Below, in pieces: positions 1 through 57,741 of a stretch of DNA of 64,000 nt. Below the pieces are notes generated by a model. It was not told the DNA's origin, did no database searches, and worked only from the letters and a program-made list of their open reading frames with translations. Position 1 is the stretch's first letter, and every line of letters begins with the position of its first letter. The position numbers and the translations under genes are program-made. Source of the stretch: a virus (Duplodnaviria > Caudoviricetes); IMG/VR virus record IMGVR_UViG_3300017780_003104, positions 96,001 to 160,000 of that record; one strand, written 5' to 3'.

Positions 1-1098
1 CTGGAAGGTAAGAATGGTTGGGTTAGCGACAAGATTTTATGGAATGAGGTTCCCGGTAGAACTCAATCATGGGCGGATAAAGTTAAAAGTGGATTAGCAT
101 CTGATGAAAAATGGAGGCAGGAATATGGTTGCGAATTTATTAATTCGGGGACATCATCCTTGAATGAGCATCTTTACAATGAATTAAAGAAGCATATTAA
201 ACCACCGATTGAAACATTGATGGATGGAAAATACCTCATATGGGAACATCCAAATCCAGAACGTATGTATGTTGTTGGTGTCGATGTGGCGGAAGGTGTA
301 GGTGGTGATTATTCCGTTATTAAAGTTCTTGATATCACAGATCTAAGGGAGATAATTGAAGTTGCCGAATATTATGACAATATGATATCCGTTTCTGAAT
401 TTTCTAATAAATTATATGAAATACTTCAACATTGGGGAAATCCTTTAGTTTGTATTGAACGTAATAATCAGGGAGGTCAAGTTGCAGATAGATTAGGTTT
501 AGATTTTGGATATCCAAAAATGGTAAATTGGGGTTCTAAACTTGCAGGTAGGAAAAACTTAGAATTGTTCGGAATGGTATCGAGTAGAAATACAAAGTAT
601 TACGCATGTTCCAATGCTCGCTATTATTATAGTGATAAACAATCGGTTATTTTTAGAAATGATCATTCCCTTGAGGAACTGTTTAAAGATTTCGTAAAAG
701 TTAATGATACGTGGCAAGCTATGTCAGGAAAGCATGATGATAGGACTATGGCAATGATATGGGCATTAATGGTTCTAGATAAAGATTTATGCGAGAGATG
801 GTTCACTATTGATGAATATGATGATTGTGGTAAACCATTAAGAATATCAACATTAGATTTCGGGATCAAATATTTCGAAAATCCAACATCTATATATACC
901 AATGAACAAGTTGATAAGATCGAACACTCCCGACTTGCACCAATGGTGTTTGGTTCATTCGGAGAAGCTGATAATGAGTTGGCACAATTACAAAATGATG
1001 GATGGTCATTACTTGGTGGGGGTAGCATGCCTTATCAAGATCCTAGTAGGACATTATCAGATGATCAATATGCTGCAATGGGTAGGATATTTAGTTAA
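1..1098 (+). CDS. gp17: Terminase large subunit, C-terminal (nuclease) part; gene begins before the window
   Basis: Frame is open from base 1 (WNEVPGRTQSW...WRQEYGCEF) into the track ORF; RNase H-like motifs YVVGVDVAEGVGGDYS, CIERNNQGG and HDDRTMA. Confidence 0.9.
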   Translation: MEGKNGWVSDKILWNEVPGRTQSWADKVKSGLASDEKWRQEYGCEFINSGTSSLNEHLYNELKKHIKPPIETLMDGKYLIWEHPNPERMYVVGVDVAEGVGGDYSVIKVLDITDLREIIEVAEYYDNMISVSEFSNKLYEILQHWGNPLVCIERNNQGGQVADRLGLDFGYPKMVNWGSKLAGRKNLELFGMVSSRNTKYYACSNARYYYSDKQSVIFRNDHSLEELFKDFVKVNDTWQAMSGKHDDRTMAMIWALMVLDKDLCERWFTIDEYDDCGKPLRISTLDFGIKYFENPTSIYTNEQVDKIEHSRLAPMVFGSFGEADNELAQLQNDGWSLLGGGSMPYQDPSRTLSDDQYAAMGRIFS

Positions 1099-1107
1099 AT
1101 ATAATAA

Positions 1108-1689
1108 ATGAACATCCAACAAAGCGTTTTAAACAAGGCCCGTCAGGACAAATTTATACTTGTGTTTGACTTACCTCCTATACTAAAGCCAATCGCCAAA
1201 AAATATGACAGGAATAATAGAACAATTATACCGGATAGTGTTCAATTTTCGGTGTTTGGAACTATTATACCAGAAGTAGCCGTAAAGGGTGTCGAGAATA
1301 GATATGCGGGTTCGACCTTATATATATCATCTTTTAGTAAGGATTCCCCACCACCAGTCAATATAAAGTTCAACGTTGACTCGATGTATAATAATTATTT
1401 CACTATATGGTCTTGGTTAAATTTATTACATGATCATAAAACTGGAATATATAATGAAAGAGGATTAATACCAGAAGATGCTAATTTTAATGATTATATG
1501 ACAGATTTATCAGTATATGGTCTTGATGAATTTGGTAAAAAGAGAATACACTTCAAATACATAAAAGCTTTCGTGACAAGTCTAGATGAAATAACTTATA
1601 ATCAAAAATCAGAGCAAGGTGAAGAGATCGAATCTGGTTTTACATTCCTTTATAGCCAGATGCACGTTGAAATTTTAAACGAAAATTGA
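1108..1689 (+). CDS. Tail tube terminator / tail completion protein (T4 gp3-like)
   Basis: Tube-fold pattern (FSVFGTIIP...VNIKFNVDSMYNNY..IWSWL...FTFLYS); lies just before the sheath gene. Confidence 0.6.
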   Translation: MNIQQSVLNKARQDKFILVFDLPPILKPIAKKYDRNNRTIIPDSVQFSVFGTIIPEVAVKGVENRYAGSTLYISSFSKDSPPPVNIKFNVDSMYNNYFTIWSWLNLLHDHKTGIYNERGLIPEDANFNDYMTDLSVYGLDEFGKKRIHFKYIKAFVTSLDEITYNQKSEQGEEIESGFTFLYSQMHVEILNEN

Positions 1690-1740
1690 ATTTGTTATTT
1701 ATCTTTTGGAAAGTTTATCAATTGAAAGATAAATAACATT

Positions 1741-4164
1741 ATGGCAACTCGCACAATTTTAAGCCCCGGTGTTGAAATATTTGAAAGAGATTTATCTCTA
1801 ATAGCCCCACAAAATGTGGGAACGAATGTATTCATTGCTGGGTATGCAGCACAAGGACCAACTGATGAAGTGATTAAAATCACTACAAGAGCAGATTTGG
1901 ATCAAATTTATGGACCTCCAACTAATAGTGCTGAGAGATACTTTTACCATGGAGTTCGTGAACTTTTAAATTCACCAGCAAATATCTATACTTCAAGACT
2001 TCCATATGGATCTGGAAGTGGTGCTGGATTTGGATCTGAATATTCAGCACTGGTATATCCAGTTCAACACGTTAATGAAACTACTGTTGATAGTCTCAGT
2101 CTTGCTTCTGCATCGTTATCAGCAACTGCAATAGCTAGCTTATCTTCATCTGTTACCTCAGATCTAAATCAACTTTCTGGAACATATGTGCTAGGTGATC
2201 CAGTTCATGTAACACTTAGCGAAACTCAATATCAACTAATCCAAGAAGGTTCTCTATTTACTTGGAGTGCCAGTGCATGTGAACGAAGTCAATTAACAAC
2301 ATTTGATAATCTTGGTAGAGCTGGATTAATTATCCTTAATAAATCCCAAACAACTATCAATAGTCAATTTGAAGGTTATTATATTGGTATTGCTGATAAC
2401 ACTAATATCAACCCAGCATCTAATTATACATCGATTATTGGGGCTAAGACCGTTAGCGTATCTGCTACATATACACCAAACTTTACTAATATTCCTCTTG
2501 GAACTTTCCAATTTAGCTTAACATCTACACCAAATGGTAATTCTGGGAGTATCTCCCAAATCATGGAAAATCTTACGGATTACAACATTGATGGAAGAGA
2601 AGATGATGATTTACTTAACATTGGTATATTCAAACTTCGTAAGAGTTTCTACGCAACAGACGCTTATAAATTAGATTATGTCGTAGATAGTGCTATTGTT
2701 GGATCTATTGATAGCTTCAGAACCCGACCAAATCAATTAGGTGGTCCATTTGTATCATTTTACTTAGAGAATGAAGATAGTAACAATAGAAATGTTGAAG
2801 TCTTGGTTAATCCATATATATCTAATAAGTTTGGATCTACTGCTGTTGGTGTTGATGGAATTCCTAACAAAAAGGTTCGTATATTAACCCATGATTTGGT
2901 TAATGGTGTCAATGCTTTATACACAAACAGTGTTAATAGTTTAACAGCGACCAATCTATATGGTGTTCTTAATCCTCAAGTAGATGTATTAGTATCTAGA
3001 GTTAGTTACGCTGACAATATCTATCCAGTTGGATCATACAGTTCTGGTCAAATTACATCTAAAGTATTAGGATCGATTCCTTCTAAAATTGAGAGAGCAT
3101 TAGAAGCCGTCAAGAATGATGAGATTTATGATATAGATGTTGTCGTTGAAGCTGGTCTTGGAACCATTCATGTCATGACCAATATTCTTGGAACGGAGAA
3201 TCAATCTCTTTCAACTACATACTATGACGATACCAAATTTAGTGATGACTTAAGTAATGCCTTGGATACTATTAGAACCTCAAATCCATTAGATGAAATT
3301 GGTACAGATATTAGAAGTAATTATAGTGTGATTTTTAATGTGTTTGAAAATTTTTGTAATCTTCCATCCAATACTGGTGGTCGTGGTGACTGTATGTTTA
3401 TAGCAGACCCAATTCGTCATATCATGGTAACTGGTAAGAGTAATAAAGTTCTGTCAGATAGATCGAAGAATTTCCAAACTCATATATATTGGGCGATGAG
3501 ACATCAGTTCGAAAATGAAAATACTTCATACGCCGCAACTTATGGTAACTGGGCATTGGTTTATGATGAATTCTTAGGTGATAAAGTGTGGGTTCCATTC
3601 TCTTCAGTTGCTGGTGCAGCTTTTGCTCGTAATGATGCAGCGGAATTCCCATGGTCTGCTCCTGCTGGATACACTAGAGGTCTTGTGAGTGGAACCGTAG
3701 TTGACATTGCAATCACACCTAATCAAAAGCAACGCGATGAACTCTACAAGAGTAACATCAACCCCGTTCTTTTCTCACCATCACAAGGTATGGCAATCTT
3801 TGGTCAAAAGACTATGAGTAGAAAGCCAAGTGCCTTTGATAGAATTAATGTTCGTAGATGTTTCTTAGCTCTAGAACGTCCAACTAAAAAGGCATCTATC
3901 TTCTTCGTATTCGAACCAAACACTGAATATACTAGAACGAGATTTGTCAATACTATTAAACCAATATTTGAATATGCTAAAAATAATCAAGGAGTTTACG
4001 ACTATCTAATTGTTTGTGATGAAAGAAACAACACACCACAAGTTATTGATAGTAATGAGATGAGAGCAGATATTTATATCAAACCAGTTAGAACTGCCGA
4101 GTTTATCTTAGTATCCTTCATTGCAACTCGCACTGATGCGAATTTTGAAGAGTTGATTGGGTGA
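1741..4164 (+). CDS. gp18: Contractile tail sheath protein
   Basis: N-terminal SPGVEIFERDLS; C-terminal PWSAPAGYTRG, QRDELYKSNINPV, FDRINVRRCF and IYIKPVRTAEFI. Confidence 0.95.
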   Translation: MATRTILSPGVEIFERDLSLIAPQNVGTNVFIAGYAAQGPTDEVIKITTRADLDQIYGPPTNSAERYFYHGVRELLNSPANIYTSRLPYGSGSGAGFGSEYSALVYPVQHVNETTVDSLSLASASLSATAIASLSSSVTSDLNQLSGTYVLGDPVHVTLSETQYQLIQEGSLFTWSASACERSQLTTFDNLGRAGLIILNKSQTTINSQFEGYYIGIADNTNINPASNYTSIIGAKTVSVSATYTPNFTNIPLGTFQFSLTSTPNGNSGSISQIMENLTDYNIDGREDDDLLNIGIFKLRKSFYATDAYKLDYVVDSAIVGSIDSFRTRPNQLGGPFVSFYLENEDSNNRNVEVLVNPYISNKFGSTAVGVDGIPNKKVRILTHDLVNGVNALYTNSVNSLTATNLYGVLNPQVDVLVSRVSYADNIYPVGSYSSGQITSKVLGSIPSKIERALEAVKNDEIYDIDVVVEAGLGTIHVMTNILGTENQSLSTTYYDDTKFSDDLSNALDTIRTSNPLDEIGTDIRSNYSVIFNVFENFCNLPSNTGGRGDCMFIADPIRHIMVTGKSNKVLSDRSKNFQTHIYWAMRHQFENENTSYAATYGNWALVYDEFLGDKVWVPFSSVAGAAFARNDAAEFPWSAPAGYTRGLVSGTVVDIAITPNQKQRDELYKSNINPVLFSPSQGMAIFGQKTMSRKPSAFDRINVRRCFLALERPTKKASIFFVFEPNTEYTRTRFVNTIKPIFEYAKNNQGVYDYLIVCDERNNTPQVIDSNEMRADIYIKPVRTAEFILVSFIATRTDANFEELIG

Positions 4165-4191
4165 TAAATATAACATATACTAAATAATAAT

Positions 4192-4758
4192 ATGCCAACA
4201 AACATTAATACATTCTATAATCTTGCATCTCAAAGACAATTTGCTAGAGATTTCTTCCTGAGAGTTCACCACATTGAACTTCCCGGTATTTCACTATTCG
4301 GTGATACGGATTTAGTTTTCGCTAAAACCGCATCAATACCCGGAAGAAATATCGAGAATAAGATAGTTAATTACTCTGGACAACAATTCAATCTTAATGG
4401 TAAGTCTAGTTATCCGGGATCAGAGGCTTATAGCATTGAATTCTTTCATACTCAAGATTTAGATCTTCGTAAAAAATTAGAATATGCATCGAGACTTACA
4501 TTCGATAATGAGACTACAACGGGTCAACTTTGTATGCCGGGACCAGAATCATATATAATCCTTGATGTATTATCAGTTCCTTGTGGTCAAGGTAATCAAG
4601 GGGGTGAGGGAATGCAAGTAATTCAGCAAATCAAACTTGTTGGTGTTTCTATTAGAGAAATCGGAGAAGTCGCATATCAAATTGCTGATGGAACTGGTGA
4701 AGTTCTATCTATTCCATGCACATTCTCATATCATTGGTATGAGAATTTTTCATACTAA
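4192..4758 (+). CDS. gp19: Tail tube protein
   Basis: Follows the sheath; KTASIPGRNI...VNYSGQQFNLNG and FSYHWYE ends are typical of T4-like tubes. Confidence 0.8.
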   Translation: MPTNINTFYNLASQRQFARDFFLRVHHIELPGISLFGDTDLVFAKTASIPGRNIENKIVNYSGQQFNLNGKSSYPGSEAYSIEFFHTQDLDLRKKLEYASRLTFDNETTTGQLCMPGPESYIILDVLSVPCGQGNQGGEGMQVIQQIKLVGVSIREIGEVAYQIADGTGEVLSIPCTFSYHWYENFSY

Positions 4759-4780
4759 TAGTTTAATAAATAAATCTTTT

Positions 4781-4810
4781 AAACCCAATTAATTCATTTT
4801 AATTGGGTTT
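4781..4810 (+). terminator. Hairpin, probable intrinsic terminator after the tail tube gene
   Basis: AAACCCAATTAA-TTCATT-TTAATTGGGTTT is a perfect 12-bp inverted repeat followed by a T-rich tract. Confidence 0.55.
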
Positions 4811-4835
4811 ATTTGTTGTATGGGTAAATAATTAA

Positions 4836-5435
4836 GTGAATCCTAATATTTACGAATTTTTCGCTGCGTTCTCTTATGATCCCAAATTCTATTTACACTT
4901 ACCAGTTCTTTGGACTGTTTCAATTGATGGAGTAACGGAGAGATCAATTAATAATGTTTTACTTGATGCTGGGGAACAATGGATGGCTAAGACAGATCCA
5001 TGGAAAATGTCTAGAAGTGGAAATATATTAGTAGCACAGGAAGTATCACTACCACAAGAATCATCAAATTTCTCAGCATTAGAATTTGGTAGCGGGATGG
5101 GTGGATACTTACCGGGATATGCATTAAATAATAGAACTAATTTTTTAGATAGATCATTTTCAATTAATTTCATTGAAACTGAATTAGACATAGAACATAA
5201 TTTCTTCAGACCATGGTTAATTGCTCTTGGTGTTAAAGGGTTGATAGAATATGGACCATCACTAAAATCTAGTATAGAGATTAAACAATATACCAATGAT
5301 GGAATATTGATACGAGGATTCCGATTTAATAAAGCATTTCCAACTGCAATTGAAGGTTATACCCTTAATTATGAAAATACTGACATTCCAATTAAATCGG
5401 TAACATTTGGTTGTCAGAATTATGAACAAATATGA
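4836..5435 (+). CDS. Tail-tube-family baseplate/tube initiator (gp54-like)
   Basis: Tube-like pattern (FSINFIET..F.RPW...IEIKQY...FPTAIEGYTLNY..VTF); synteny; GTG start 5 nt after TAAATA. Confidence 0.5.
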   Translation: MNPNIYEFFAAFSYDPKFYLHLPVLWTVSIDGVTERSINNVLLDAGEQWMAKTDPWKMSRSGNILVAQEVSLPQESSNFSALEFGSGMGGYLPGYALNNRTNFLDRSFSINFIETELDIEHNFFRPWLIALGVKGLIEYGPSLKSSIEIKQYTNDGILIRGFRFNKAFPTAIEGYTLNYENTDIPIKSVTFGCQNYEQI

Positions 5436-6220
5436 TATTATCAATTCCAAGCTTATCTGAAGAATGTAATATAAACGTATCGGAATTCACATTAGAGGAT
5501 TTCAGGAATATATCATTCCTGATCGAACAGAATAATGATAATGAATTATATAAGTTTCTAATATCTAAAATAGAGACTCCATGCAATGCATATGATAAAT
5601 TCTATGTTCTTTTTAAAATGAGAATATTATTAGTAAATGAAAATATATCATTTAATAATGGAAGAGCTAATATAAAAGTAAATTTAAAATCTTGGGATAA
5701 TACGATTTTAGATAACTATAAAGATATCAAAAAGGATATAATATTTGAGGATTTTATAGCAACAGTGAATTACCCAGAGCATATGATGTACGATAATTAT
5801 GATGATTGTGTAATGGGATGTATTGCAAAAATTTCATATAAAGGTAGAGACATTAAATTCTTCGGATTGGATAAAACTGAAAAGCTTTCAATTTTGGAGA
5901 GAATACCACCATCGTTATATATTTCAATTAAGGACTATATAACTGAACATCGCATGGATAGGTTAATTGTAATGGAGTCTAAATTAGATTTACCAGAAAT
6001 CGATATAAATATTTTCAATAATAATGCATACGAATTATTAAAAATATTATATAATTACTATAAGTATGACGATATATTAGAATTGATATTTATGCTAAGT
6101 CGAAAAATCAATGATATTGGGTATTTGAATAGTAGAAATCCAAGAGATTTGGACCTTTTAATACAAATATATTCAGAAGATGTTGAAAAAACCTCCCATG
6201 ATAGTAAATCATATATATGA
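5432..6220 (+). CDS. Probable baseplate hub assembly protein (gp26/gp51-like)
   Basis: Position in the baseplate block and acidic composition; weak family assignment. Confidence 0.35.
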   Translation: MILSIPSLSEECNINVSEFTLEDFRNISFLIEQNNDNELYKFLISKIETPCNAYDKFYVLFKMRILLVNENISFNNGRANIKVNLKSWDNTILDNYKDIKKDIIFEDFIATVNYPEHMMYDNYDDCVMGCIAKISYKGRDIKFFGLDKTEKLSILERIPPSLYISIKDYITEHRMDRLIVMESKLDLPEIDINIFNNNAYELLKILYNYYKYDDILELIFMLSRKINDIGYLNSRNPRDLDLLIQIYSEDVEKTSHDSKSYI

Positions 6221-6939
6221 GTAAGAATCAATTACAAGACTTTCTTGATATTTTAGATAAATGTGAAGATAAATCCTTGAAGGTTAATGTATCATCTAAA
6301 GATCACGTATTAGTTTCACCCCTTTCCTTCAAACAACAAAAAACCTTAATAACAACTGGATTGGATGGTATAACTGGTGTTATGGTATTTGTTAAAAATT
6401 TAAATGATATCATTTTAAACAATTCGGATGATGAAAATCTGAAAATCTACGATAGGATTCCAATTGCATTAGCATTGAGAAAAAAATTATCAGATAAAAA
6501 AATAGAAAAAGATGAGATTAAAATAGATGTTGATGATTTAATTAATCAATTTAAAAAATTTGATCTAGATGAAACTAGACAAATAGAATTAGATGGTTAT
6601 TCTGTGAATCTTAGGATACCCACACTAAAACAAGAAAATAAATCATTATCGATATGTATTGAAGATCTGAAAAAAATGGACTCTGATAATATTGGTAAAA
6701 ATGTGGCATTGATCCTCTCCTACGAGCTTCCAAAATTTATCGATAGTATCATGTTCGGTGATAATGTGATAAAATTTGATGACATTCCAAATTCAGAAAA
6801 AATTAAAATAATGGATAAGTTGCCAGCAAATGTGACCAATAATATCACAGAATTCATCTTAAAAGTTAGAGAATATGATGAATCTCTCTTAACATGGTCT
6901 GGAATAACGGTAGATATTGATTCATCCTTCTTCGAATAA
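6217..6939 (+). CDS. Baseplate hub assembly protein (gp26-like)
   Basis: SPLSFKQQKTL, DRIPIALALR, VNLRIP and IMDKLP segments resemble gp26-like chaperones; synteny. Confidence 0.45.
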   Translation: MSKNQLQDFLDILDKCEDKSLKVNVSSKDHVLVSPLSFKQQKTLITTGLDGITGVMVFVKNLNDIILNNSDDENLKIYDRIPIALALRKKLSDKKIEKDEIKIDVDDLINQFKKFDLDETRQIELDGYSVNLRIPTLKQENKSLSICIEDLKKMDSDNIGKNVALILSYELPKFIDSIMFGDNVIKFDDIPNSEKIKIMDKLPANVTNNITEFILKVREYDESLLTWSGITVDIDSSFFE

Positions 6940-6961
6940 AGAATAAAGATTAAATACTAAT

Positions 6962-8740
6962 GTGGAATTAGTAGAACAATTTTTAGGAATTTTAGATAAA
7001 CAAACCAAACTCGTAGATGAACTTGCATCTATGAAGTCTGGTGGTAATACATTAGTATCTAAAAACATAATAAAATCAGATAATTCAACATTTGATTCGG
7101 ATAGTTCACAACCATCAAAACTGAATTCAAAGGAGAGAGCTAGAACCGCAGAGGCATCGTCTATCTTTATATCTAAATTCTTCAGTGAAGAAAAGAAACA
7201 TAGAAAAGATACAGCGGAGAAGACATCAATCTCTAAACTGGTAAAACCTACCCTTCAAACAAAAAGTAAATCATTAACAGGAATATCCGACAAAAAGGGT
7301 GGTGGTGGATTAATGGAAGCATTGATGGGTATGTTGGGTCTTGGATCACTTAGCAAACTAATAAAACCCGGAGCATTAATAAAATCATTATTCAAGAAAG
7401 GTCTAGCTACAATATCTAGTAAATTGAAGGGTGTTATATCTTCCATTTGGGGTGGCACTAAGAACTTAACATCAAAAATGATTACTAGTCTAAAAGATGT
7501 AACATCAAAAGCTTTAGATGGAGTTAAAGGTGTTTTTGGTTCAATTAAAGATAAAGCACTTGGAATGTTTGAAAAAGTTGGGACTAAAATATCTGGTCTA
7601 TGGGGAACTATAACTAATTCAAGTGCATATAAAACATTTTCTGGATTGATTGACGATGCTGCTTCTGCAATATCTAAAGTATTTCAAGGAGTTAAGAATA
7701 AAGTTGGAACCTTTATTGAGTCGGGTTCTAAACTAGTCTCTAAATACACACCAGAACCTATAAAGGCTGGTGCAGCTAAAGCTGGATCAGCTTTGAAGAC
7801 TGCTGGTAAAGCTACGAGTAGTTGGTTGGGTAGAGCTAGTGGATTTATTAAATCAACTGCTGGTGAAGCTGCTGGTGGTGCTGTTAAATATGGTAAGGCT
7901 GCTGGTGGTGCTGTTAAGGGTTTCAGTAAGGGTGCGGTTGATTCAGCTAAAGGATTAGTTGCATCGACATTTCAAAGTGCCATTAAGAAATCTGGTGGGA
8001 TGATAGGAATGATGGGAAAACTTACAGCCAAAAGTGCTAGAGGTGTAGCTAAAGTTCCAATTATAGGTCCAGCTATCGAAGCTGCATTTACAGCATATGA
8101 TATAGCTGAAATGAAAAAGAAAGGATTATCTGATTCTGAATTACAACAATTAGCTGGTAAACGAGTTATAAGTGGTGTAACTGGTATGATAGGTATGGCT
8201 AGTGGCTCCCTATTAGCTGGAGCATTGGGGAGTATTGTTCCCGGTGCTGGGACTGCATTAGGTGTTATTCTAGGTGGTATGGCTGGTGATGTAGCTGGGA
8301 GATTTTTAGGTGGTTTAGTGACCGATTATATAATCCCTAAAAAGTATACCAAAACTATCGGAGCTTTTGTGACAGGCACTCCACCACCCAGAGATGAAAT
8401 GCAAGACTTTATTATCAAGAATGGTAAAGTTCATAAATTTAGTAGTAAAGATGATGTCATGGGCATGAAAACAGGTGGGGCGATTGATGACTTCCTGAAA
8501 GGTGGTAGTGGTAATAATCAAACTATGCAGAAGATTGTCCAAGCTAATAATATATCCAATCAATATTTGAGAGCTATTGCTCATAATACCGCTATGATGG
8601 TTAATAAATTATCAAATAACTCATCAGGTGGGCGTCCAATTATAGTATCATCGCCACAATCGAAACCAGCACCTACAAAACAAATGGTGACAATTCCAAA
8701 TAATAGATCTGGTTACAGTGACAGTGCTTATGCATTATAA
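6962..8740 (+). CDS. Probable tape-measure / baseplate hub protein (gp29-like)
   Basis: 592 aa (T4 gp29 is about 590 aa); Ala/Gly/Lys-rich helical repeats and a glycine-zipper hydrophobic segment (GALGSIVPGAGTALGVILGGMAG). Confidence 0.5.
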   Translation: MELVEQFLGILDKQTKLVDELASMKSGGNTLVSKNIIKSDNSTFDSDSSQPSKLNSKERARTAEASSIFISKFFSEEKKHRKDTAEKTSISKLVKPTLQTKSKSLTGISDKKGGGGLMEALMGMLGLGSLSKLIKPGALIKSLFKKGLATISSKLKGVISSIWGGTKNLTSKMITSLKDVTSKALDGVKGVFGSIKDKALGMFEKVGTKISGLWGTITNSSAYKTFSGLIDDAASAISKVFQGVKNKVGTFIESGSKLVSKYTPEPIKAGAAKAGSALKTAGKATSSWLGRASGFIKSTAGEAAGGAVKYGKAAGGAVKGFSKGAVDSAKGLVASTFQSAIKKSGGMIGMMGKLTAKSARGVAKVPIIGPAIEAAFTAYDIAEMKKKGLSDSELQQLAGKRVISGVTGMIGMASGSLLAGALGSIVPGAGTALGVILGGMAGDVAGRFLGGLVTDYIIPKKYTKTIGAFVTGTPPPRDEMQDFIIKNGKVHKFSSKDDVMGMKTGGAIDDFLKGGSGNNQTMQKIVQANNISNQYLRAIAHNTAMMVNKLSNNSSGGRPIIVSSPQSKPAPTKQMVTIPNNRSGYSDSAYAL

Positions 8741-23124: not shown

Positions 23125-23751
23125 ATGGTAGAATACCCATCAATACAGAATAGTTCAAAAGCCCCCCGTAAAGAATGTATAGCATTCGATAAACTTGATG
23201 GGTCTAATTTTAGAGCTAAATGGACTAAGAAACAAGGATTCTCTACGTTTGGAACTAGAACACAGTTGATAGATGAAACTACACCTTTTTGGTGTGATAT
23301 GGTTTATCGATTTAAGAATAATCTTAGCGAAACTTTAGAGAAGCTTATTCTTAAGGAATATCAAAATGAAAGAGAAGTGATAGTATTCGGTGAATATTTC
23401 GGGGAAAATAGTTTCGCTGGGAGGCACGAAGAAGAAGACCATAAAATTGTAGTATTCGATGTTTTAGTAGGACATAAGAATCGAAAATTTATTAAACCTA
23501 GAGATTTTGTAAAATTACTTTCAGATAAGATTGAGATACCTAGAATAGTTTATGAGGGTAATCTAAATGATGATCTTATTAAGAGAGTCAGATCAGATGA
23601 ATTTAATACCTTTGAGGGAGTTATCTGTAAAGGAACACAATCGGTAGGCAATGCTATGGGTGGTATATGGATGGCTAAGATTAAAACACAAAAATACCTA
23701 GATAGTCTTAAAACTAGATTTGGAGAAGATTGGGTGAAATACGCAGAATAA
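23125..23751 (+). CDS. RNA ligase family (Rnl2-like nucleotidyltransferase core)
   Basis: YPSI, KLDGSN, FGEYFG, FDV, EGVICK and AKIK. Confidence 0.75.
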   Translation: MVEYPSIQNSSKAPRKECIAFDKLDGSNFRAKWTKKQGFSTFGTRTQLIDETTPFWCDMVYRFKNNLSETLEKLILKEYQNEREVIVFGEYFGENSFAGRHEEEDHKIVVFDVLVGHKNRKFIKPRDFVKLLSDKIEIPRIVYEGNLNDDLIKRVRSDEFNTFEGVICKGTQSVGNAMGGIWMAKIKTQKYLDSLKTRFGEDWVKYAE

Positions 23752-24646: not shown

Positions 24647-26029
24647 ATGAAATTGAAAATCACAGAAGGAGCAGATCCAAATTATTTGGCAACTGTTGTA
24701 AAAGTTCCCACTATTAAGGAACATCCAAATGCTGATAAATTGGAAATTGTCGATGTTTTTGGTAATTCTATTATTATTGGTAAGGGTTCTTACACTGAAG
24801 GTGAACTCGTTGTTTACTTTCCAATCGAGAGTGCCATTTCTCTTAAGTTTTTGTCTTGGGCAAACCTAAGAGATAGTGCCGAAATGAATGCAGATGGTAA
24901 GACTAAGGGTTTCTTTGGAAAACATGGCCGAGTCAAGGCTATTAGTCTTAGAAGCATTCCATCACAAGGCTTTCTATTTAAAGTATCTGAACTAGTAAAA
25001 TATTATGAAATTGATGAAAACACGTTTAATCTTGGGGATACTTTTGATACTGTCGGTGATGATATCTTGGTTAAGAAATATATTAAAGGAACCGACAGAG
25101 GACAAGGTGAACAAAACGTAAAGAAGACCCGTGTTCCGAAATGGTTAGATAAGACCATTGGAGTTATGCCAAGACCTATTCGTAGAAATGCTTATATTTT
25201 TATTAATTCTTGGTATAATCGAAATAGCGAAGGTATTAAATCTCAAATCGTAGATGGAGAATTTAGATTCCACTACAAGACAGAACAACTTGGCCGAAAT
25301 ATTTTCATATTGAAGCCTGAAGATTCTATAACTATATCTAGTAAGATGCATGGAACTTCTGCAATCTTATCTAATATCGTTTGTAAGAAACCATTCAATC
25401 CAATTAGAAGTATTGGAAATAAATTTGGTGCGAAGATTCCATCGACTGAATATAAATTTGTGTATAGTTCAAGGTCTGTATTGAAAAATCGTCGTGATGG
25501 AAAATTTACAGACGATGTTTGGGGTATTATTGCGTCTGAATTAAAGGATGAAATTCCAGAAGGTTATACTGTATATGGCGAAATTGTGGGGTATACTCCC
25601 GGTGGTGCTATGGTTCAGAAGAATTACGATTATGGTATAACTAGGGGTAAGTGTGAATTTTTTGTATATCGAATCACATATAATCTATCCGATGGAAAGG
25701 TTAAGGAATTGGAATGGTATGAAATCGAAGAATTTTGTTATGAGCATGGTATGAGGAATGTTAAGGTTTATTACAATGGTTTGGCAAGTGATCTATTTGA
25801 TATTCCACTTGATAATGATTGGCATGAAACCTTTTTATCTAAACTCAAAGATAATCACCTTGATAATGTTTGTGAACAATGCACCACAGGTTCTATTAAT
25901 GAGGGTATTGTTCTTAGAATTGAAAGTAGTGAAAAGAAAACTGCATTAAAATTTAAAAGTCCTAAGTTCTTGATTCAAGAGTCGGCAGCAAGAGATAATA
26001 ACGAGGAAGACATGGAGGACGATAGTTAA
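24647..26029 (+). CDS. RNA ligase with an N-terminal OB-like domain (DRB0094/Rnl5-like)
   Basis: HPNADKLE, SQG, KMHGTS, YGEIVG, EGIVLR and KFKSPKF. Confidence 0.8.
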   Translation: MKLKITEGADPNYLATVVKVPTIKEHPNADKLEIVDVFGNSIIIGKGSYTEGELVVYFPIESAISLKFLSWANLRDSAEMNADGKTKGFFGKHGRVKAISLRSIPSQGFLFKVSELVKYYEIDENTFNLGDTFDTVGDDILVKKYIKGTDRGQGEQNVKKTRVPKWLDKTIGVMPRPIRRNAYIFINSWYNRNSEGIKSQIVDGEFRFHYKTEQLGRNIFILKPEDSITISSKMHGTSAILSNIVCKKPFNPIRSIGNKFGAKIPSTEYKFVYSSRSVLKNRRDGKFTDDVWGIIASELKDEIPEGYTVYGEIVGYTPGGAMVQKNYDYGITRGKCEFFVYRITYNLSDGKVKELEWYEIEEFCYEHGMRNVKVYYNGLASDLFDIPLDNDWHETFLSKLKDNHLDNVCEQCTTGSINEGIVLRIESSEKKTALKFKSPKFLIQESAARDNNEEDMEDDS

Positions 26030-41325: not shown

Positions 41326-41961
41326 ATGCAAACTCGTTATAAATACAACAGAACAAAACATCTTCCATGGTCCCCCGGTGCAACTTCAGATGATAAGATT
41401 CTTAAGGACACTTCTTGCTTTAATGGTAAGACGGTAATCATTACTGAGAAGATGGATGGTGAAAATTCCACTCTTTATAGTGATTATTATCATGCACGTT
41501 CATTAGATGGTAGGGATCATCCTTCACGTTCATGGATTAAACAGTTTCATGCATCTATTAAGAATGACATTCCAGAAGGATGGCGTATATGTGGTGAAAA
41601 CCTTTATGCAAAACATTCCATTGGATATGATAAGCTAAAATCATATTTCTATTGTTTCAGTATTTGGGATGATACTAACTATTGTTTATCTTGGAAAGAC
41701 ACTGTAGAGTTTTGTCAGTTGTTAGGTATTGAACATGTTAAGGTTTTTAAGACTTTGAAGTGGGACGAATTAACAGTAAAGAATTTCTTAATTGATTCTG
41801 AAAAAGAGGAAGGTTATGCTGTTCGTAATGTTGGTGGATTTCTATATGAAGACTTTGGAAGTAACGTAGCGAAATGGGTAAGACCAAATCACGTAACCAC
41901 TTCGACCCATTGGCTACATTCGGAAGTGATACCAAACAAGTTAATTAAAACCGAAGTATAA
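41326..41961 (+). CDS. RNA ligase family protein
   Basis: KYNRTKHLPWSPG, TEKMDGEN, CGEN, EGYAVR and AKWVR; ATG at 41326 is in frame with track ORF 41224. Confidence 0.8.
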   Translation: MQTRYKYNRTKHLPWSPGATSDDKILKDTSCFNGKTVIITEKMDGENSTLYSDYYHARSLDGRDHPSRSWIKQFHASIKNDIPEGWRICGENLYAKHSIGYDKLKSYFYCFSIWDDTNYCLSWKDTVEFCQLLGIEHVKVFKTLKWDELTVKNFLIDSEKEEGYAVRNVGGFLYEDFGSNVAKWVRPNHVTTSTHWLHSEVIPNKLIKTEV

Positions 41962-52432: not shown

Positions 52433-53230
52433 ATGAATAACAAAGACGGACTAGGAGACAGAATAAAAAATTACGAAAGTATTTCAGAGCATTACTTTCT
52501 ACCAAAGACTCCGATTATTATTCGCGTTGATGGTAAAAGTTTTCATACGTGGACTAAAGGTTGTCAAAGACCTTTCGATCAAACGCTGATCACTTGTATG
52601 TTTGAGTCTGCTAAAGAAGTAGCTAAACAAATGCAAGGTTGTAAAGCTTTGTATGCTCAATCGGATGAAGTAACATTTGTTCTTACTGATGATACTACTC
52701 TTGATTCACAACAATGGTTTGGCGGTAGACAGAACAAGATTGAAAGTGTTACTGCTGCAATGATGACAGCATACTTTAATAAGAATTGGTTACATTCTGT
52801 TCCTAGACATATGGTTGATTATGATTTTCACGTAGATTACACCCCCGCTATCTTTGATGCCCGTGCTTTTCAATGTCCTAAAGATGATGTTGCTAATGTC
52901 TTTCTATGGAGAGTAAAGGATTGGGAACGTAATAGTCTCAATATGTATTGTGAACAGTTCTTCTCTCATAAGGAACTGCAAGGTCAAGGTCGTGCTGATA
53001 GACATGAAATGCTTCATAAGATTGGACATAATTGGGCTACTGAATGCACCGATCAACAAAAGAATGGTTCGTGGTATTCTCCGGGAAAACCTGATAAGTT
53101 CAACCTCACTAATTACTATGATATCGATGATTATATCTTTCGTGACGGTATTGCTTATGTAATGTCAAAGAAGATGCAATCAGAGGATTTAAGTTGGATG
53201 AGTAAAATGATTGTAAAGAGAATGGGTTAA
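52433..53230 (+). CDS. thg1: tRNA-His guanylyltransferase / Thg1-like 3'-5' polymerase
   Basis: RIKNYE, IIRVDGKSFH, YAQSDEV, FDAR and WRVKD.ERNS. Confidence 0.92.
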   Translation: MNNKDGLGDRIKNYESISEHYFLPKTPIIIRVDGKSFHTWTKGCQRPFDQTLITCMFESAKEVAKQMQGCKALYAQSDEVTFVLTDDTTLDSQQWFGGRQNKIESVTAAMMTAYFNKNWLHSVPRHMVDYDFHVDYTPAIFDARAFQCPKDDVANVFLWRVKDWERNSLNMYCEQFFSHKELQGQGRADRHEMLHKIGHNWATECTDQQKNGSWYSPGKPDKFNLTNYYDIDDYIFRDGIAYVMSKKMQSEDLSWMSKMIVKRMG

Positions 53231-54603: not shown

Positions 54604-54673
54604 TTAAAACCGAAATATAATTGCGACATCGAAAGTCGCTTGACAAATCAAAAAACTAAACTAAGATAAACAC

Positions 54674-56329
54674 ATGTTTGAGAATAAAAGAAACGCAGAA
54701 GTCGTGACTGTTAAATCAGTTACTCGTAAGGAAGTTAACGCATTCCTAAACAATGCTAAAGCAGAATCATCCAAGACTCGTTCTGGTAACGGGGCATTGA
54801 AATTCAGTTCAAGTGGTGATTCGTTTACCGATCAGTTTACTAAGGCTGGTAAGTATAAGGAACCTCGTAAGTTCTCTCAAATCGCACAAGATTGTGAAAT
54901 GTTGTGGGGTGAAGACCCTCTCAAGTGTGTGAAGTTCGCATTGTTTCTTCGTACTATTCCTCGCGTAGTTAATCTTCCTGATGGAAGTAAGACTGAACTT
55001 CCTCAAAAGGGAACCGAGTTGAAGCATGAAGCAATTATGCGTATGCTTTGGTTGAGTGATAAGTCTCCTCAAGCATTCTGGAATAACATTCTATTGTTTG
55101 TTTCTCTTGGATCTTGGCACGATGTTTTCACTATGCTTCAATATGATCTTAGCTACAACGGTTGGAATAATCGTAAGCTTGATTGGGATAAGTTTGGTGA
55201 GTTGATTCTTGCTGGTCTTAACAATAAGAACACCTGTGATCTTATTAAGAAGTATCTTCCTCAAATCAAGTCTCGTAGTCAAGCTACGACTATTGATGCT
55301 CAATCCAACAATGCTATTGCTAAGTGGATTTGCTCTCTAGTCTTTGGTAACAAGGAAAGCGCATCTTCATACAAGGCTTATCGTAAGATCAAGACTAGTG
55401 GAACCGCGCATGATTGGCAAAAGCTTATCTCCCAAAAGAGAATGAGTGAATTGGATTTCAATAAAATTCATGGTCGTGCTCTATCAATTCTTGTTAAGAG
55501 TAAGTTCTTAAAGAACCAAGGACTTAGCGATAAGTATGCATCTTGGATTACTGCACCTACCACCAAGGAAGTTAAGTATACTGGATTCGTCCATGAACTC
55601 TTCGAAGGTAACTGGAAGAACGATAAGAACAACGAAGCAACTATCAATAAGCAATTCGATACTCTTGTTCAAAAGGCAAGAACTAATGAAGTTACTGATT
55701 TGATTGTCGTTCGTGATACTTCTGGATCGATGTCTTCAATTTGTCCCGGCACTAAGTCTTCATGTCTTGATGTTGGAAAGGCAATCGCTCTATACTTTAG
55801 TGAATTCCTTCAAGGAACCTTTGCGGGTCATTGGATTGAATTCAACTCTGATGCTAAACTTCAAAAATGGGTTGGTCAAACTCCCGTTGATAAGTGGAAG
55901 AATGATAAGTCAAGCTTTTATGGTGGAACTAACTTTCAAAGTGTTGTTAATCTTCTCGCTAAGATGAAGAAAGAGGGAACACCTGAAAGTGATTTCCCTA
56001 GCGGTATCCTTTGCATTTCCGATGCAGAATTCAATCCTACTTCATTAGGTAAAACTAATGTTGAGACTGCGTTGACTACTCTTCGTAATGCTGGATTCTC
56101 CAAGGCTTATGTTGATAACTTTGTGATTATTCTTTGGAACCTTCAAAATAGTTATTATGGTAAAGGGTCTGGTGAAAAGTTTGAGACTGGTAAAGAAGTA
56201 AACAACGTTTACTATCTGGGTGGGTATAGTGCCTCCGCAGTTAGTTTCCTTTCAGCTAAGATCAAGACAACCTATGATCTAATCAACGAGTGTCTTAATC
56301 AGGAAGTTTTGAATATGGTTGAGATTTAA
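54674..56329 (+). CDS. Ro60/TROVE-like (DUF2828-type) RNA-binding protein with a C-terminal vWA domain
   Basis: Helical N-terminus (KFALFLR, GSWHD, KYLP) and vWA MIDAS elements VVRDTSGSM, GGTNF and ISDAEF; TTGACA-16-TAAGAT-N6-ATG upstream. Confidence 0.72.
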   Translation: MFENKRNAEVVTVKSVTRKEVNAFLNNAKAESSKTRSGNGALKFSSSGDSFTDQFTKAGKYKEPRKFSQIAQDCEMLWGEDPLKCVKFALFLRTIPRVVNLPDGSKTELPQKGTELKHEAIMRMLWLSDKSPQAFWNNILLFVSLGSWHDVFTMLQYDLSYNGWNNRKLDWDKFGELILAGLNNKNTCDLIKKYLPQIKSRSQATTIDAQSNNAIAKWICSLVFGNKESASSYKAYRKIKTSGTAHDWQKLISQKRMSELDFNKIHGRALSILVKSKFLKNQGLSDKYASWITAPTTKEVKYTGFVHELFEGNWKNDKNNEATINKQFDTLVQKARTNEVTDLIVVRDTSGSMSSICPGTKSSCLDVGKAIALYFSEFLQGTFAGHWIEFNSDAKLQKWVGQTPVDKWKNDKSSFYGGTNFQSVVNLLAKMKKEGTPESDFPSGILCISDAEFNPTSLGKTNVETALTTLRNAGFSKAYVDNFVIILWNLQNSYYGKGSGEKFETGKEVNNVYYLGGYSASAVSFLSAKIKTTYDLINECLNQEVLNMVEI

Positions 56330-56918
56330 ATATCTTAAACTTTCTATCTAAAAAGAGAGTGGAGTCTTTGTAAATAAAGTTTCCGATGCGACCAACTTTA
56401 TCTAGAATCAATAGACAAGCCGACTGATTTGGAAAAATTTACAATGACAATAATAACAGCAAAATTAGAAGAGGTTGACAAATCTAAATTTCATGATTAA
56501 ATAAAGATCCGATGAGGTTTCGGTAGCTTCCTATGGCGAACAAATAAAACTACCAATAAGATTGCTTCAGCAAATATATTTTTATTTAAGGAAAAACAAA
56601 AGCAATCTGATAAGAGGACAAACTACAAATACAAAAAATCAAACGTCCTCTGATAAGAATAAGTAACAGCAAAAACAATAAAAAATAAAAGCAAATATGC
56701 TAAACGATGAAAGTCGTCCGGGTATCCTCACCATATTAGAGGTTGTAATATGGAGCTTAGAAGGGAGTCAATCTTAACTTATTCTGATAAAGTCATAAAC
56801 TGCAAATAAAAATACTATTATGCAAAATAGCCTGTCGGTGGGTCCGAGGTAACTAAAACGGTTCGATTCCGTATCTATGACTTGCATAAAATCTCTTCAG
56901 CAAATAACGGAACGTAAA

Positions 56919-56996
56919 ACTCCCATACGTGTGGTTCAAATCCCGCTGCTCACACTTTATTAAAAAGTGGGTATAGCCAAGTGGTAAGGCAGGAGT
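56919..56996 (+). ncRNA. Circularly permuted tRNA-like domain (unit 5)
   Basis: 3' half ACTCC-CATAC-T arm-TGCTCAC precedes 5' half GTGGGTA-TAGCCAAGTGGTAAGGC-A-GGAGT. Confidence 0.8.
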
Positions 56997-57048
56997 CCAA
57001 AAACAATGAGATTTAATAGAAATACTCCAGCAAATAACGCAACAAGGA

Positions 57049-57127
57049 ACCGTGTGTCGAACGTTCGATTCGTTCTCTCCCACCATATAAGTAAAATGGG
57101 AGGTAGCTCAGTTGGTAGAGCAACGGT
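57049..57127 (+). ncRNA. Circularly permuted tRNA-like domain (unit 6)
   Basis: ACCGT-GTGTC-GAACG TTCGATT CGTTC-TCTCCCA-CCA precedes TGGGAGG-TAGCTCAGTTGGTAGAGC-A-ACGGT. Confidence 0.88.
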
Positions 57128-57462
57128 AAGCAAAAAACATAGTATTTCGATAGGATTATATTCAGCAAATATACTACTCAACTGTTAATTGAAAAAAGTA
57201 AAAGTAATCCGATAAGAATTTCAGCAGCATAATATCGTAACTATAACGACTCTAAGGTAGCTTAGGTTTGGGAAACCAATACGGCGATGGTAGATAGGTA
57301 AACTAAGTTCTTTATAGAATATGTAAACCCTACGGGACGAACGATTGAATATTTATATATTCTTTAATGTGTCAGTGAAAGATGAAATTCTGATAAAATT
57401 AGCAACAGCAAACCAAACAAAAATTTGACTTTTAATCAAACAATAAAATGCTAATTTGATAC

Positions 57463-57741
57463 ATGGAAATATTTTATATCATAACACTATCATTCATATT
57501 GAATGTATTATGGTCAATGATGGGTAGAGCTAGAAATAGAAACAACCTCATTTATCATGGTGTATTAGTATTTCTATCAAATCTATTATGGATTCTTTTT
57601 ATGAAAAAGTTAATGACTTCCGATACGGAATCTTTAATATATGGAAGTATTGGTGGGACTATTGGTGCCATTTGTGGACAACCATTATCAATGTTTATTG
57701 AACGTGTGTTGAATGCTAAGAGTGATGATCACATAGAATAA
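57463..57741 (+). CDS. Small membrane protein
   Basis: Three hydrophobic segments; starts 2 nt after the RNA array. Confidence 0.65.
   Translation: MEIFYIITLSFILNVLWSMMGRARNRNNLIYHGVLVFLSNLLWILFMKKLMTSDTESLIYGSIGGTIGAICGQPLSMFIERVLNAKSDDHIE

Follow-up and report, generated by a model that had tools for sequence, protein, structure and literature searches.

The stretch of DNA analysed here (hereafter, the window) comprises 64,000 nucleotides (positions 96,001 to 160,000 of IMG/VR record IMGVR_UViG_3300017780_003104) and belongs to the complete 211.7 kb genome of a freshwater phage, with a GC content of 34% and 22 tRNAs predicted by ARAGORN. The locus of interest consists of a gene for a 551-residue DUF2828/DUF7788 protein and, in the 1.13 kb region 3′ of this gene, an array of nine abutting RNA units, each of which is closed by a stem of its own sequence. 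The protein is predicted to share the architecture of Ro60, a helical-repeat ring followed by a von Willebrand factor A (vWA) domain. The element common to the units, which we refer to as the handle, is a candidate docking site for this ring. A megablast search of the locus against phage records gave no match.

The nine units tile positions 56559 to 57457 and follow a common grammar. The 5′ strand of the closing stem (7–9 nt, mostly starting with AGA, AAG or AAA) is followed after 0–3 nt by CAGCAAA(U), a variable insert and the complementary 3′ strand. Behind the 3′ strand come a G and a 4-nt linker, which reads GATA in six cases, GCATA in one and AATA in one. Seven of the eight inter-unit junctions are 4 nt long and one is 5 nt long (GCATA, between units 4 and 5). 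The CAGCAAA motif is exact in six of the nine units (1, 3, 5, 6, 7 and 9), while units 4 and 8 contain the variants CTGCAAA and CAGCATA, and the motif of unit 2 is degenerate (CTACAAA). A detector that requires the motif and a stem of at least 7 bp returned nine units and eight abutting junctions for the array, compared to a mean of 0.35 units, a maximum of 2 and zero abutting junctions for 300 dinucleotide shuffles, and a maximum of one unit for 54 other 1.1-kb tiles of the window. Open reading frames (ORFs) across the array are only 51–77 aa long and overlap the GC-richer, tRNA-like inserts, and ARAGORN identified no ordinary tRNA inside this array or inside any of those in relatives. We conclude that the nine-unit array is real and far beyond chance. 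The first-pass annotation of the window, made from the sequence alone, had proposed nine abutting units with these closing stems, a CAGCAAA-like motif after each 5′ strand and the lack of a credible ORF, all of which could be read directly at the places it had given. Its division of the entire 1.1 kb into units holds from position 56559 onward, since the first 229 nt, from the stop codon to unit 1, contain a putative promoter and a leader but no units (Table 1).

Table 1. Features of the locus and its surroundings, with positions in the window. Stems are given as 5′ strand/3′ strand; R1 is a covariance model of the handle units; MIDAS, metal-ion-dependent adhesion site.
Feature	Position	Strand	Remarks
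DUF2828/DUF7788 protein, 551 aa	54674..56329	+	predicted Ro60-like helical-repeat ring and vWA domain, MIDAS DxSxS
Candidate dedicated array promoter, TTGACA-N17-TAAATA	56478..56506	+	read directly; 53 nt before unit 1
Leader containing the hairpin GGTAG...CTACC, with AATA at its end	56512..56558	+	read directly; directly 5′ of unit 1
Unit 1, short "empty" handle RNA, 50 nt	56559..56608	+	stem AGATTGCTT/AAGCAATCT; R1 53.6 bits
Unit 2, decayed short unit, 39 nt, motif CTACAAA, internal deletion	56613..56651	+	stem AGAGGAC/GTCCTCT
Unit 3, handle and structured cargo of three or four hairpins	56656..56785	+	stem AGAATAAGT/ACTTATTCT
Unit 4, CTGCAAA handle, bulged hairpin and T-arm-like hairpin (ACGG-TTCGATT-CCGT)	56790..56883	+	stem AAGTCATA/TATGACTT
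Unit 5, handle and circularly permuted tRNA-like body	56889..57014	+	stem AAATCTC/GAGATTT; R1 23.5 bits
Unit 6, handle and YrlA-like permuted tRNA body, encoded CCA	57019..57148	+	stem GAAATACT/AGTATTTC
Unit 7, short handle RNA, 58 nt, small conserved hairpin CAACTGTTAATTG	57153..57210	+	stem GGATTAT/GTAATCC; R1 59 bits
Unit 8, CAGCATA handle and 150-nt conserved multi-helix cargo	57215..57391	+	stem AGAATTTCA/TGAAATTCT
Unit 9, short handle RNA, 62 nt	57396..57457	+	stem AAATTAGCA/TGCTAATTT; R1 46.2 bits
ORF for a 92-aa hydrophobic protein	57463..57741		ATG adjoins the trailer of unit 9
Promoter-like site before the protein gene, TTGACA-16-TAAGAT	54640..54667	+	consensus match only, 10/12 positions
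Thg1-like gene (tRNA-His guanylyltransferase / 3′-5′ polymerase family)	52433..53230	+	Pfam PF04446, E 1.6e-31
RNA_ligase domain gene	23173..23646		PF09414
RNA_ligase domain gene	25328..25954		PF09414
RNA_ligase domain gene	41431..41880		PF09414

The putative array promoter, TTGACA-N17-TAAATA, is kept before the first unit in the related loci L002, L003 and L004, and L005 has TTGACA-N17-TAAGTT at this place; a comparable leader is found in L002. At the opposite end of the array, the trailer of unit 9 (GATAC) runs into the start codon of the hydrophobic ORF, whose mRNA would be nearly leaderless if the unit 9 linker were cleaved. A tenth CAGCAAA is located at 56457 (within 56440–56470), upstream of the array promoter and without a detectable closing stem, and may be a remnant unit.

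The sole Pfam match of the 551-residue protein (hmmscan, E≤1) is DUF7788, with an E-value of 5e-10 and a score of 39.5 bits against a cut-off of 27.1. Close homologues additionally carry PF11443, and PHROG 850, annotated as "RNA-binding protein", matches with an E-value of 3e-30. The AlphaFold2 (AF2) model calculated from a 75-sequence alignment has a pLDDT of 91.4 and a pTM of 0.89 (a single-sequence model with a pLDDT of 39 was discarded). It consists of a closed, HEAT-like ring followed by a vWA domain with a MIDAS, of which the DxSxS residues (D348, S350 and S352) are invariant. The top 12 Foldseek matches against the PDB are all Ro60/TROVE structures, including Xenopus and human Ro60, the Ro60 of Thermus phage phiLo and D. 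radiodurans Rsr. The best structural matches among the Swiss-Prot models of AFDB are Rsr, Ro60 and telomerase p80, and Ro60 is also the best match of a profile-against-PDB search (E 8e-4). In Ro60, the outside of the ring holds Y RNA and the central hole takes in the ends of misfolded RNA. Since this architecture is predicted at a sequence identity to Ro60 of only 10–14% and with no match to Pfam TROVE (PF05731) in the same hmmscan search, we call the protein Ro60-like by fold only, and not a TROVE member at the level of sequence. The TROVE/vWA protein of the first-pass annotation is, therefore, correct as regards the predicted fold and the vWA domain, but not as regards the Pfam family, and the Ro60-type ring that it expected of a structure prediction is found in the AF2 model.

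A tblastn search gave 456 phage records with a homologue of the protein; Felixounavirus, Listeria P100-like, Enterococcus, Campylobacter and Bacillus phages are among them. An exhaustive HMMER search yielded 1,574 homologue clusters at 50% identity. The nearest homologue in an isolate is that of Leptolyngbya phage Lbo-JY46 (43% identity), and the Felixounavirus homologues match at ~23% identity.

Comparison of the units in relatives allowed a general description of the handle, which consists of a closing stem of 7–9 bp, followed by a single-stranded (U)ACAGCAAAU and, at the 3′ end, by CUG(A/U). In 10 related loci, metagenomic or from cyanophages, it occurs close to a DUF2828 gene (within ~1 kb) and on the same strand. 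The homologue of Lbo-JY46 is followed by five units of the same grammar, and arrays of ~4 to 12–13 units are found in the IMG/VR loci L002–L006 (43–85% protein identity) and in the metagenomic loci L011–L013 (76–95%), with 12–13 units in L002. The 65 units of the 10 loci have 53 different stem sequences; 62 of them have a G after the 3′ strand, and the commonest motif, CAGCAAAU, occurs in 31. The 7-bp stem of 26 aligned short units is 98.4% paired, with compensatory changes at all seven pairs, compared to 32–41% pairing in controls in which the partners were shifted by 1–3 columns. Because the units were picked for a stem, this pairing figure is partly circular; no such circularity affects the fixed register, the linkers or the tiling.

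The order of the units differs between relatives, orthologous cargos are found under different stems, and units have been gained, lost or have decayed. Strain variants in a freshwater metagenome (run X3) skip stretches of 155 nt and 113 nt within the array, which correspond to roughly one unit each. Thus, the conserved scaffold with swapped cargo, which had been predicted as the outcome of a covariance-model search near DUF2828 genes, is borne out; the scaffold covaries, and the cargo is shuffled, gained and lost as well as swapped. Two of the relatives have further features of their own. In L006 (2702–2817), a normal-order tRNA (Rfam 56.8 bits, uncalled by ARAGORN) lies directly 3′ of the DUF2828 gene and holds an insertion of ~44 nt with a handle motif, AACAGCAAAUAUAC, in its anticodon-loop region. 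In L013 (4712–5795), a LAGLIDADG-like ORF and a second ORF are located between the DUF2828 gene and the array.

When R1 was applied to lineages outside its building set, all matches were beside a DUF2828 gene and on its strand. The Felixounavirus Escherichia phage adrianh has two R1 matches and two further units recognized by eye, one of which contains a permuted tRNA-like body; these units are hidden between annotated tRNAs. Three units are located directly upstream of gp165 in Listeria P100, behind a promoter, and three, one and two units are present in Klebsiella FBKp34, Campylobacter Los1 and Bacillus Skywalker, respectively. Bacteroidota chromosomes also contain handle units, three in L016 and two in L015, each of the latter followed by a T-run. 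In a specificity control on both strands of five complete phage genomes (647 kb), 11 of 11 matches at E≤0.05 fell within ~1 kb of the gene, and the three strong matches obtained over the 211.7-kb genome of the source phage are all in the array.

This linkage bears on the possibility that the units are structured RNAs or processing cassettes of a tRNA or RNA-maintenance region, acting through a host factor or another phage protein, and that their adjacency to DUF2828 genes only reflects shared synteny. The units indeed lie within or beside tRNA arrays in Felixounavirus, Klebsiella and Bacillus phages, and three DUF2828 loci have no detectable handle. In the source phage, however, nearly all of the 22 tRNAs are clustered in one island ~36 kb away and on the opposite strand, and the array still abuts the DUF2828 gene; its position beside the Ro60-like gene is, therefore, no by-product of a tRNA cluster. 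Furthermore, the association spans cyanophage-like, enterobacterial, Firmicute and Campylobacter phages, as well as bacterial chromosomes, with unrelated neighbourhoods. We consider an explanation by synteny unlikely.

The cargos enclosed by the handle are diverse. About half of the 65 units are short and without a mimic. In the present array, the closing stem of the short unit 1 is kept in the minimum-energy fold, the decayed unit 2 has an intact, 57-nt orthologue with ATTCAGCAAAT in L011 (95% protein identity), and unit 7 has orthologues in L011, L012, L013 and L003. The cargo of unit 3 is kept in L011, L012 and L002 (four loci in all) with four covarying pairs, and that of unit 4 in seven loci under six different closing stems, with covariation in both hairpins. 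A four-sequence alignment of unit 8 from four loci contains 43 predicted pairs, 15 of which have compensatory changes. No Rfam family matched the cargos of units 3 and 8 even at E≤10, which also holds for unit 8 searched alone. A likeness of unit 8 to 5S or 23S rRNA, seen by eye (CUAAGGUAGC, GAUGGUAG), was rejected for this lack of a match.

Units 5 and 6 contain circularly permuted tRNA-like bodies. In unit 5, which has an orthologue in L011, the 3′ half comes first, followed by a loop-closed acceptor and by a 5′ half whose D-loop is long, and there is no anticodon loop. In the minimum-energy fold of unit 6, the closing stem surrounds a cloverleaf body with an anticodon-like stem (ACCGU/ACGGU), a T-arm, a D-arm and a 7-bp acceptor that is also closed by a loop (UCUCCCA-CCA ... 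UGGGAGG). This unit, which is absent from L011 despite the 95% identity of the proteins, aligns with positions 23–85 of the Rfam YrlA model with a score of 33 bits (E 5.6e-5), compared to a gathering score of 69 bits. Both units display the T-arm, the loop-closed acceptor, the D-arm and the anticodon-like stem leading into the terminal stem that characterize the YrlA-type module. After the halves had been joined in silico via a synthetic anticodon loop, ARAGORN identified a tRNA in units 5 and 6 and in 11 similar units of relatives (13 in total), but in none of four other T-loop-containing or control units. Thus, the assignment of units 5 and 6 as YrlA-like tRNA mimics is supported.

Units 5 and 6 could also be regarded as circularly permuted tRNA genes that give working tRNAs after rearrangement, with the other units as processing remnants. 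In favour of this are the order of the halves (3′ before 5′), the presence of all four stems and the CCA encoded by unit 6. However, units 5 and 6 contain neither a 7-nt anticodon loop nor the bulge-helix-bulge (BHB) junction of such genes, and the handle motif is located in a 23-nt/10-nt internal loop into which the anticodon-like stem opens. With 22 normal tRNAs, the phage is already supplied, and the architecture is that of YrlA and not of a tRNA precursor, which makes this origin extremely unlikely.

The first-pass annotation had interpreted the array as a library of mimics of translation RNAs, possibly decoys for anticodon or rRNA nucleases of the host. Mimicry of tRNA is upheld by units 5 and 6, but that of rRNA is not, as units 3 and 8 are without an Rfam match. 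In a broader form of this proposal, the array RNAs would act as free decoys or sponges and titrate defence nucleases that attack tRNA or rRNA, without involvement of the protein; an RNA array resembling those of type III toxin-antitoxin (TA) systems is a variant of this proposal. In the type III system ToxI/ToxN, near-identical RNA repeats accompany an endoribonuclease toxin, and the locus is similar in having tandem RNA units beside a protein gene, which are presumed to be cut into single protein-binding units. Additionally, some of the units hold tRNA-like bodies and T-arms, and a counter-defence phenotype is known for the locus of the Felixounavirus homologue. In contrast to ToxI, however, every unit is different here, and the adjacent protein has a predicted Ro60 fold with a vWA domain rather than that of an endoribonuclease toxin. 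None of the tRNA-like modules has an anticodon loop, and mimicry of what anticodon nucleases usually attack is, therefore, not possible for them. The many short units offer no mimic at all, units 3 and 8 have cargos without a match among the rRNA and other Rfam models, which speaks against decoys for rRNA nucleases, and the published phenotype maps to the protein gene. Taken with these differences, a decoy array independent of the protein is very unlikely.

More than 250 bacteria and phages have Ro60 genes with adjacent Y RNAs, one of which is tRNA-like (Chen et al. 2014, PMC4201824), and the YrlA RNA of M. smegmatis is cut by RNase P and gains a CCA (PMC4201824). The present locus resembles the bacterial and phage systems of Ro60 (Rsr) and YrlA/YrlB (Rfam RF02553; PMC4201824; Thermus phage phiLo Ro60, PMC12135203) in that a ring-plus-vWA protein is encoded beside its own small RNAs. 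These RNAs have a terminal stem, and one class contains a permuted tRNA-like body with a loop-closed acceptor, while others are short or have a T-arm only; RtcB is often nearby, as in the bacterial Ro60 systems. Unlike Ro60/Rsr, the protein belongs to DUF2828/DUF7788. The handle, a short stem with a single-stranded ACAGCAAAU, replaces the bulged Ro-binding helix or GNCGAAN0-1G of Y RNAs; the GNCGAAN0-1G stem is absent, and scores against YrlA stay below the gathering score even for the full-length match of 46 bits in L005. The number of RNAs also differs, as one or two RNAs in Ro60 loci compare to an abutting array of up to nine units here (12–13 in L002), with fixed 4-nt linkers.

A member of the same protein family, gp130 of the Felixounavirus Bas63, counters the Ppl defence, and was called Ro60-like and described as upstream of tRNA genes in the PhageMaP preprint (PMC11482910). 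The preprint guesses that some of the neighbouring "tRNAs" are Y RNAs; handle and arrays are not described there (PMC11482910). The array reported here is far larger and tRNA-free. In Felixounavirus, the candidates for the RNA partner are the unannotated handle RNAs between the tRNAs, rather than the annotated tRNAs. Within the literature searched, this preprint is the only source that links the protein family to Ro60, and the handle is mentioned nowhere. Rfam 15 has no family for the handle, with only the YrlA and Dicty_Class_I_RNA models touching units of the array. The claim that no such system had been described is, thus, valid for the handle and the arrays within that literature, but the Ro60-like nature of the family had already been recognized for gp130.

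The surroundings of the locus are rich in RNA-related genes. The Thg1-like gene is located 1.4 kb upstream of the Ro60-like gene, an arrangement shared by L011, L012 and L013 at their DUF2828 genes; it is treated as syntenic context. The three RNA_ligase domain genes of the window, together with a gene of the CCA-adding/poly(A) polymerase family at genome positions 183209–183574, appear, from their domain assignments, to constitute a large RNA-repair toolkit. RtcB was sought in the source phage genome and is absent, but it adjoins the DUF2828 gene in Listeria P100 and in the bacterial locus L016. The latter (1021–7060 of an 8-Mb bacterial contig) encodes, in order, a WYL regulator, RtcB, five tRNAs, the DUF2828 protein, three handle RNAs, SSB and RecA, and is a bacterial counterpart of the rsr/Y-RNA/rtcB neighbourhood, or possibly a prophage. 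The theme of RNA-repair genes around DUF2828 loci matches the bacterial rsr-Y RNA-rtcBA neighbourhoods. The tRNA island of the source phage is located at 189–199 kb of the genome, outside the window. One tRNA, also outside the window (G000:C1 196159-196232), has the anticodon CTA, which would read TAG; it is possibly an amber suppressor, and could point to the reassignment of a stop codon in part of the genome.

Based on these comparisons, we conclude that the feature is real and is a variant of the Ro60/Y-RNA kind. The locus likely encodes a phage ribonucleoprotein of the Ro60/Y-RNA type, with the handle as the dock of each RNA on the ring and the insert as the determinant of the partner, and there is a good probability that it is built on a protein lineage and an RNA handle that both differ from those of Ro60 and Y RNAs. 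As the conserved promoter suggests, the array would be transcribed as one precursor from TTGACA-N17-TAAATA at 56478. Cleavage of the precursor in the 4-nt G(A/U)UA linkers would then release stem-closed RNAs ending in ...CUG(A/U). The closing stem and the single-stranded (U)ACAGCAAAU beside its 5′ strand would dock each RNA on the ring, consistent with their strict co-occurrence with the gene and their conservation, and the variable insert would determine what the particle touches. By analogy with YrlA, units 5 and 6, which present a complete tRNA body lacking only the anticodon loop, could tether the ring to tRNA-handling enzymes, and could themselves be cut by RNase P and CCA-processed. The other units would present a T-arm or further folds, and the short units may do no more than occupy or gate the ring. 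During infection, the particle likely serves in RNA repair, in the quality control of RNA or in counter-defence. This would fit the presence of RNA-repair genes near such loci and the anti-Ppl phenotype reported for the homologue of an E. coli phage, the only genetic evidence on the family here.

Several points weigh against a particle of this type. The low identity of the protein to Ro60 structures and its lack of a TROVE match have been mentioned above, as has the dissimilarity of the handle to known Y RNAs, with their Ro60-binding helix and GNCGAAN0-1G motif. RNA binding by the 551-residue protein is predicted from co-occurrence and conservation. With R1, no handle was detected beside the DUF2828 genes of Enterococcus EFDG1 and an Erwinia jumbo phage, and only a weak match was obtained for Lewinella, so that the pairing of gene and handle is either not universal or the handle has diverged in these cases. 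As tRNA genes adjoin the handle RNAs in many phages, these RNAs could belong to a tRNA operon instead of the protein. The ends of the array RNAs and the processing sites, including the cuts at GAT|AA expected by the first-pass annotation, are candidate positions. Expression evidence is weak: contigs in a metatranscriptome library, which shares its sample with a DNA run holding 95% of the sampled words of the locus, are 100% identical over 56184–56406 and 56807–57069, the latter spanning units 4–6. Since the library holds only five short contigs across 20 kb, DNA carry-over could account for them.

A further likeness concerns the Class I RNAs of Dictyostelium. Over its entire length, the Rfam model Dicty_Class_I_RNA (RF01414) can be aligned with 12 units from phages or bacteria, with scores of 26–39 bits, compared to a gathering score of 41.5; unit 1 scores 30.2 bits over the full length of the model. 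Class I RNAs have been reported to be unique to dictyostelids, with a function that is not understood (Kjellin et al. 2021, PMC7919456). The features common to both are a length of 50–60 nt, a short stem joining the 5′ and 3′ ends, a conserved ..UACAGCAA directly 3′ of the 5′ strand, a variable A-rich loop, and a 5′ G that pairs with the C of the 3′ CUG(U) tail (PMC7919456). The stem and the UACAGCAA core are present in the units, and the G-C pair and CUG(A/U) in most. Phage units differ in one extra A-U pair outside the G-C pair, and all of their scores are below 41.5, so that the likeness may reflect either homology or convergence. Class I genes are dispersed, each with a DUSE promoter, in contrast to a polycistronic array with a bacterial-type promoter in the phage, and the reported direct binder of Class I RNA in Dictyostelium is an RRM protein (Rnp1A/CIBP).

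Members of the protein family also occur in Amoebozoa. DUF2828 genes were identified in four amoebozoan transcriptomes, three of them forming a clade with support of 95/86, and a sister gene is located on a metagenomic contig with eukaryote-type neighbours (ZZ, Ras/Arf and JmjC). In an 843-aa DUF2828/DUF7788 protein encoded by a Rhizamoeba saxonica transcript (P0230), a C-terminal 2H phosphoesterase domain (PF13563) is fused to the family domain, which connects the family with the chemistry of RNA end healing. One of four proteins pulled down with DdR-21, a Class I RNA, is DDB_G0281243, which has no known function (bioRxiv 10.1101/2020.04.05.026054). No dictyostelid DUF2828 protein was found in the Swiss-Prot set of AFDB, AFDB clusters, ESM Atlas, two homologue searches with amoebozoan seeds or the literature. 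The eukaryote-like contig L021 was searched for a handle RNA and has none, a result that is uninformative because a eukaryote may have its RNA genes apart from the protein gene. From these sequence likenesses, it is a real possibility, though less likely than not, that the handle RNAs and the Class I RNAs of Dictyostelium are one ancient family with DUF2828/DUF7788 proteins as the conserved partner.

Particles of Ro60 and Y RNA have a central place both in RNA quality control and in human autoimmunity. To our knowledge, the known bacterial and phage examples of Ro60 have one or two RNAs and represent one protein family. The locus described here points to a second, widespread Ro60-like lineage (456 phage records and 1,574 clusters) with an RNA handle of its own. 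This lineage has expanded into arrays, in which one candidate docking element is combined with many interchangeable inserts, a natural modular "scaffold plus cargo" RNA system that is tied by published genetics to escape from the Ppl bacterial defence. Unannotated RNA genes are, thereby, revealed in common model and therapeutic phages (Felix O1 types and Listeria P100). New from this locus are the tRNA-free polycistronic array, its several cargo classes and the turnover of units between near relatives, as well as the conserved array promoter, the examples on Bacteroidota chromosomes (one by RtcB) and the amoebozoan protein lead. Should the likeness to Class I RNAs reflect homology, an orphan class of eukaryotic RNAs would gain a candidate partner and function. 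The second Ro60/Y-RNA-like lineage would then extend from phages to Bacteroidota and Amoebozoa, and what Class I RNAs do, a question of 20 years, would become testable via the DUF2828/DUF7788 protein.

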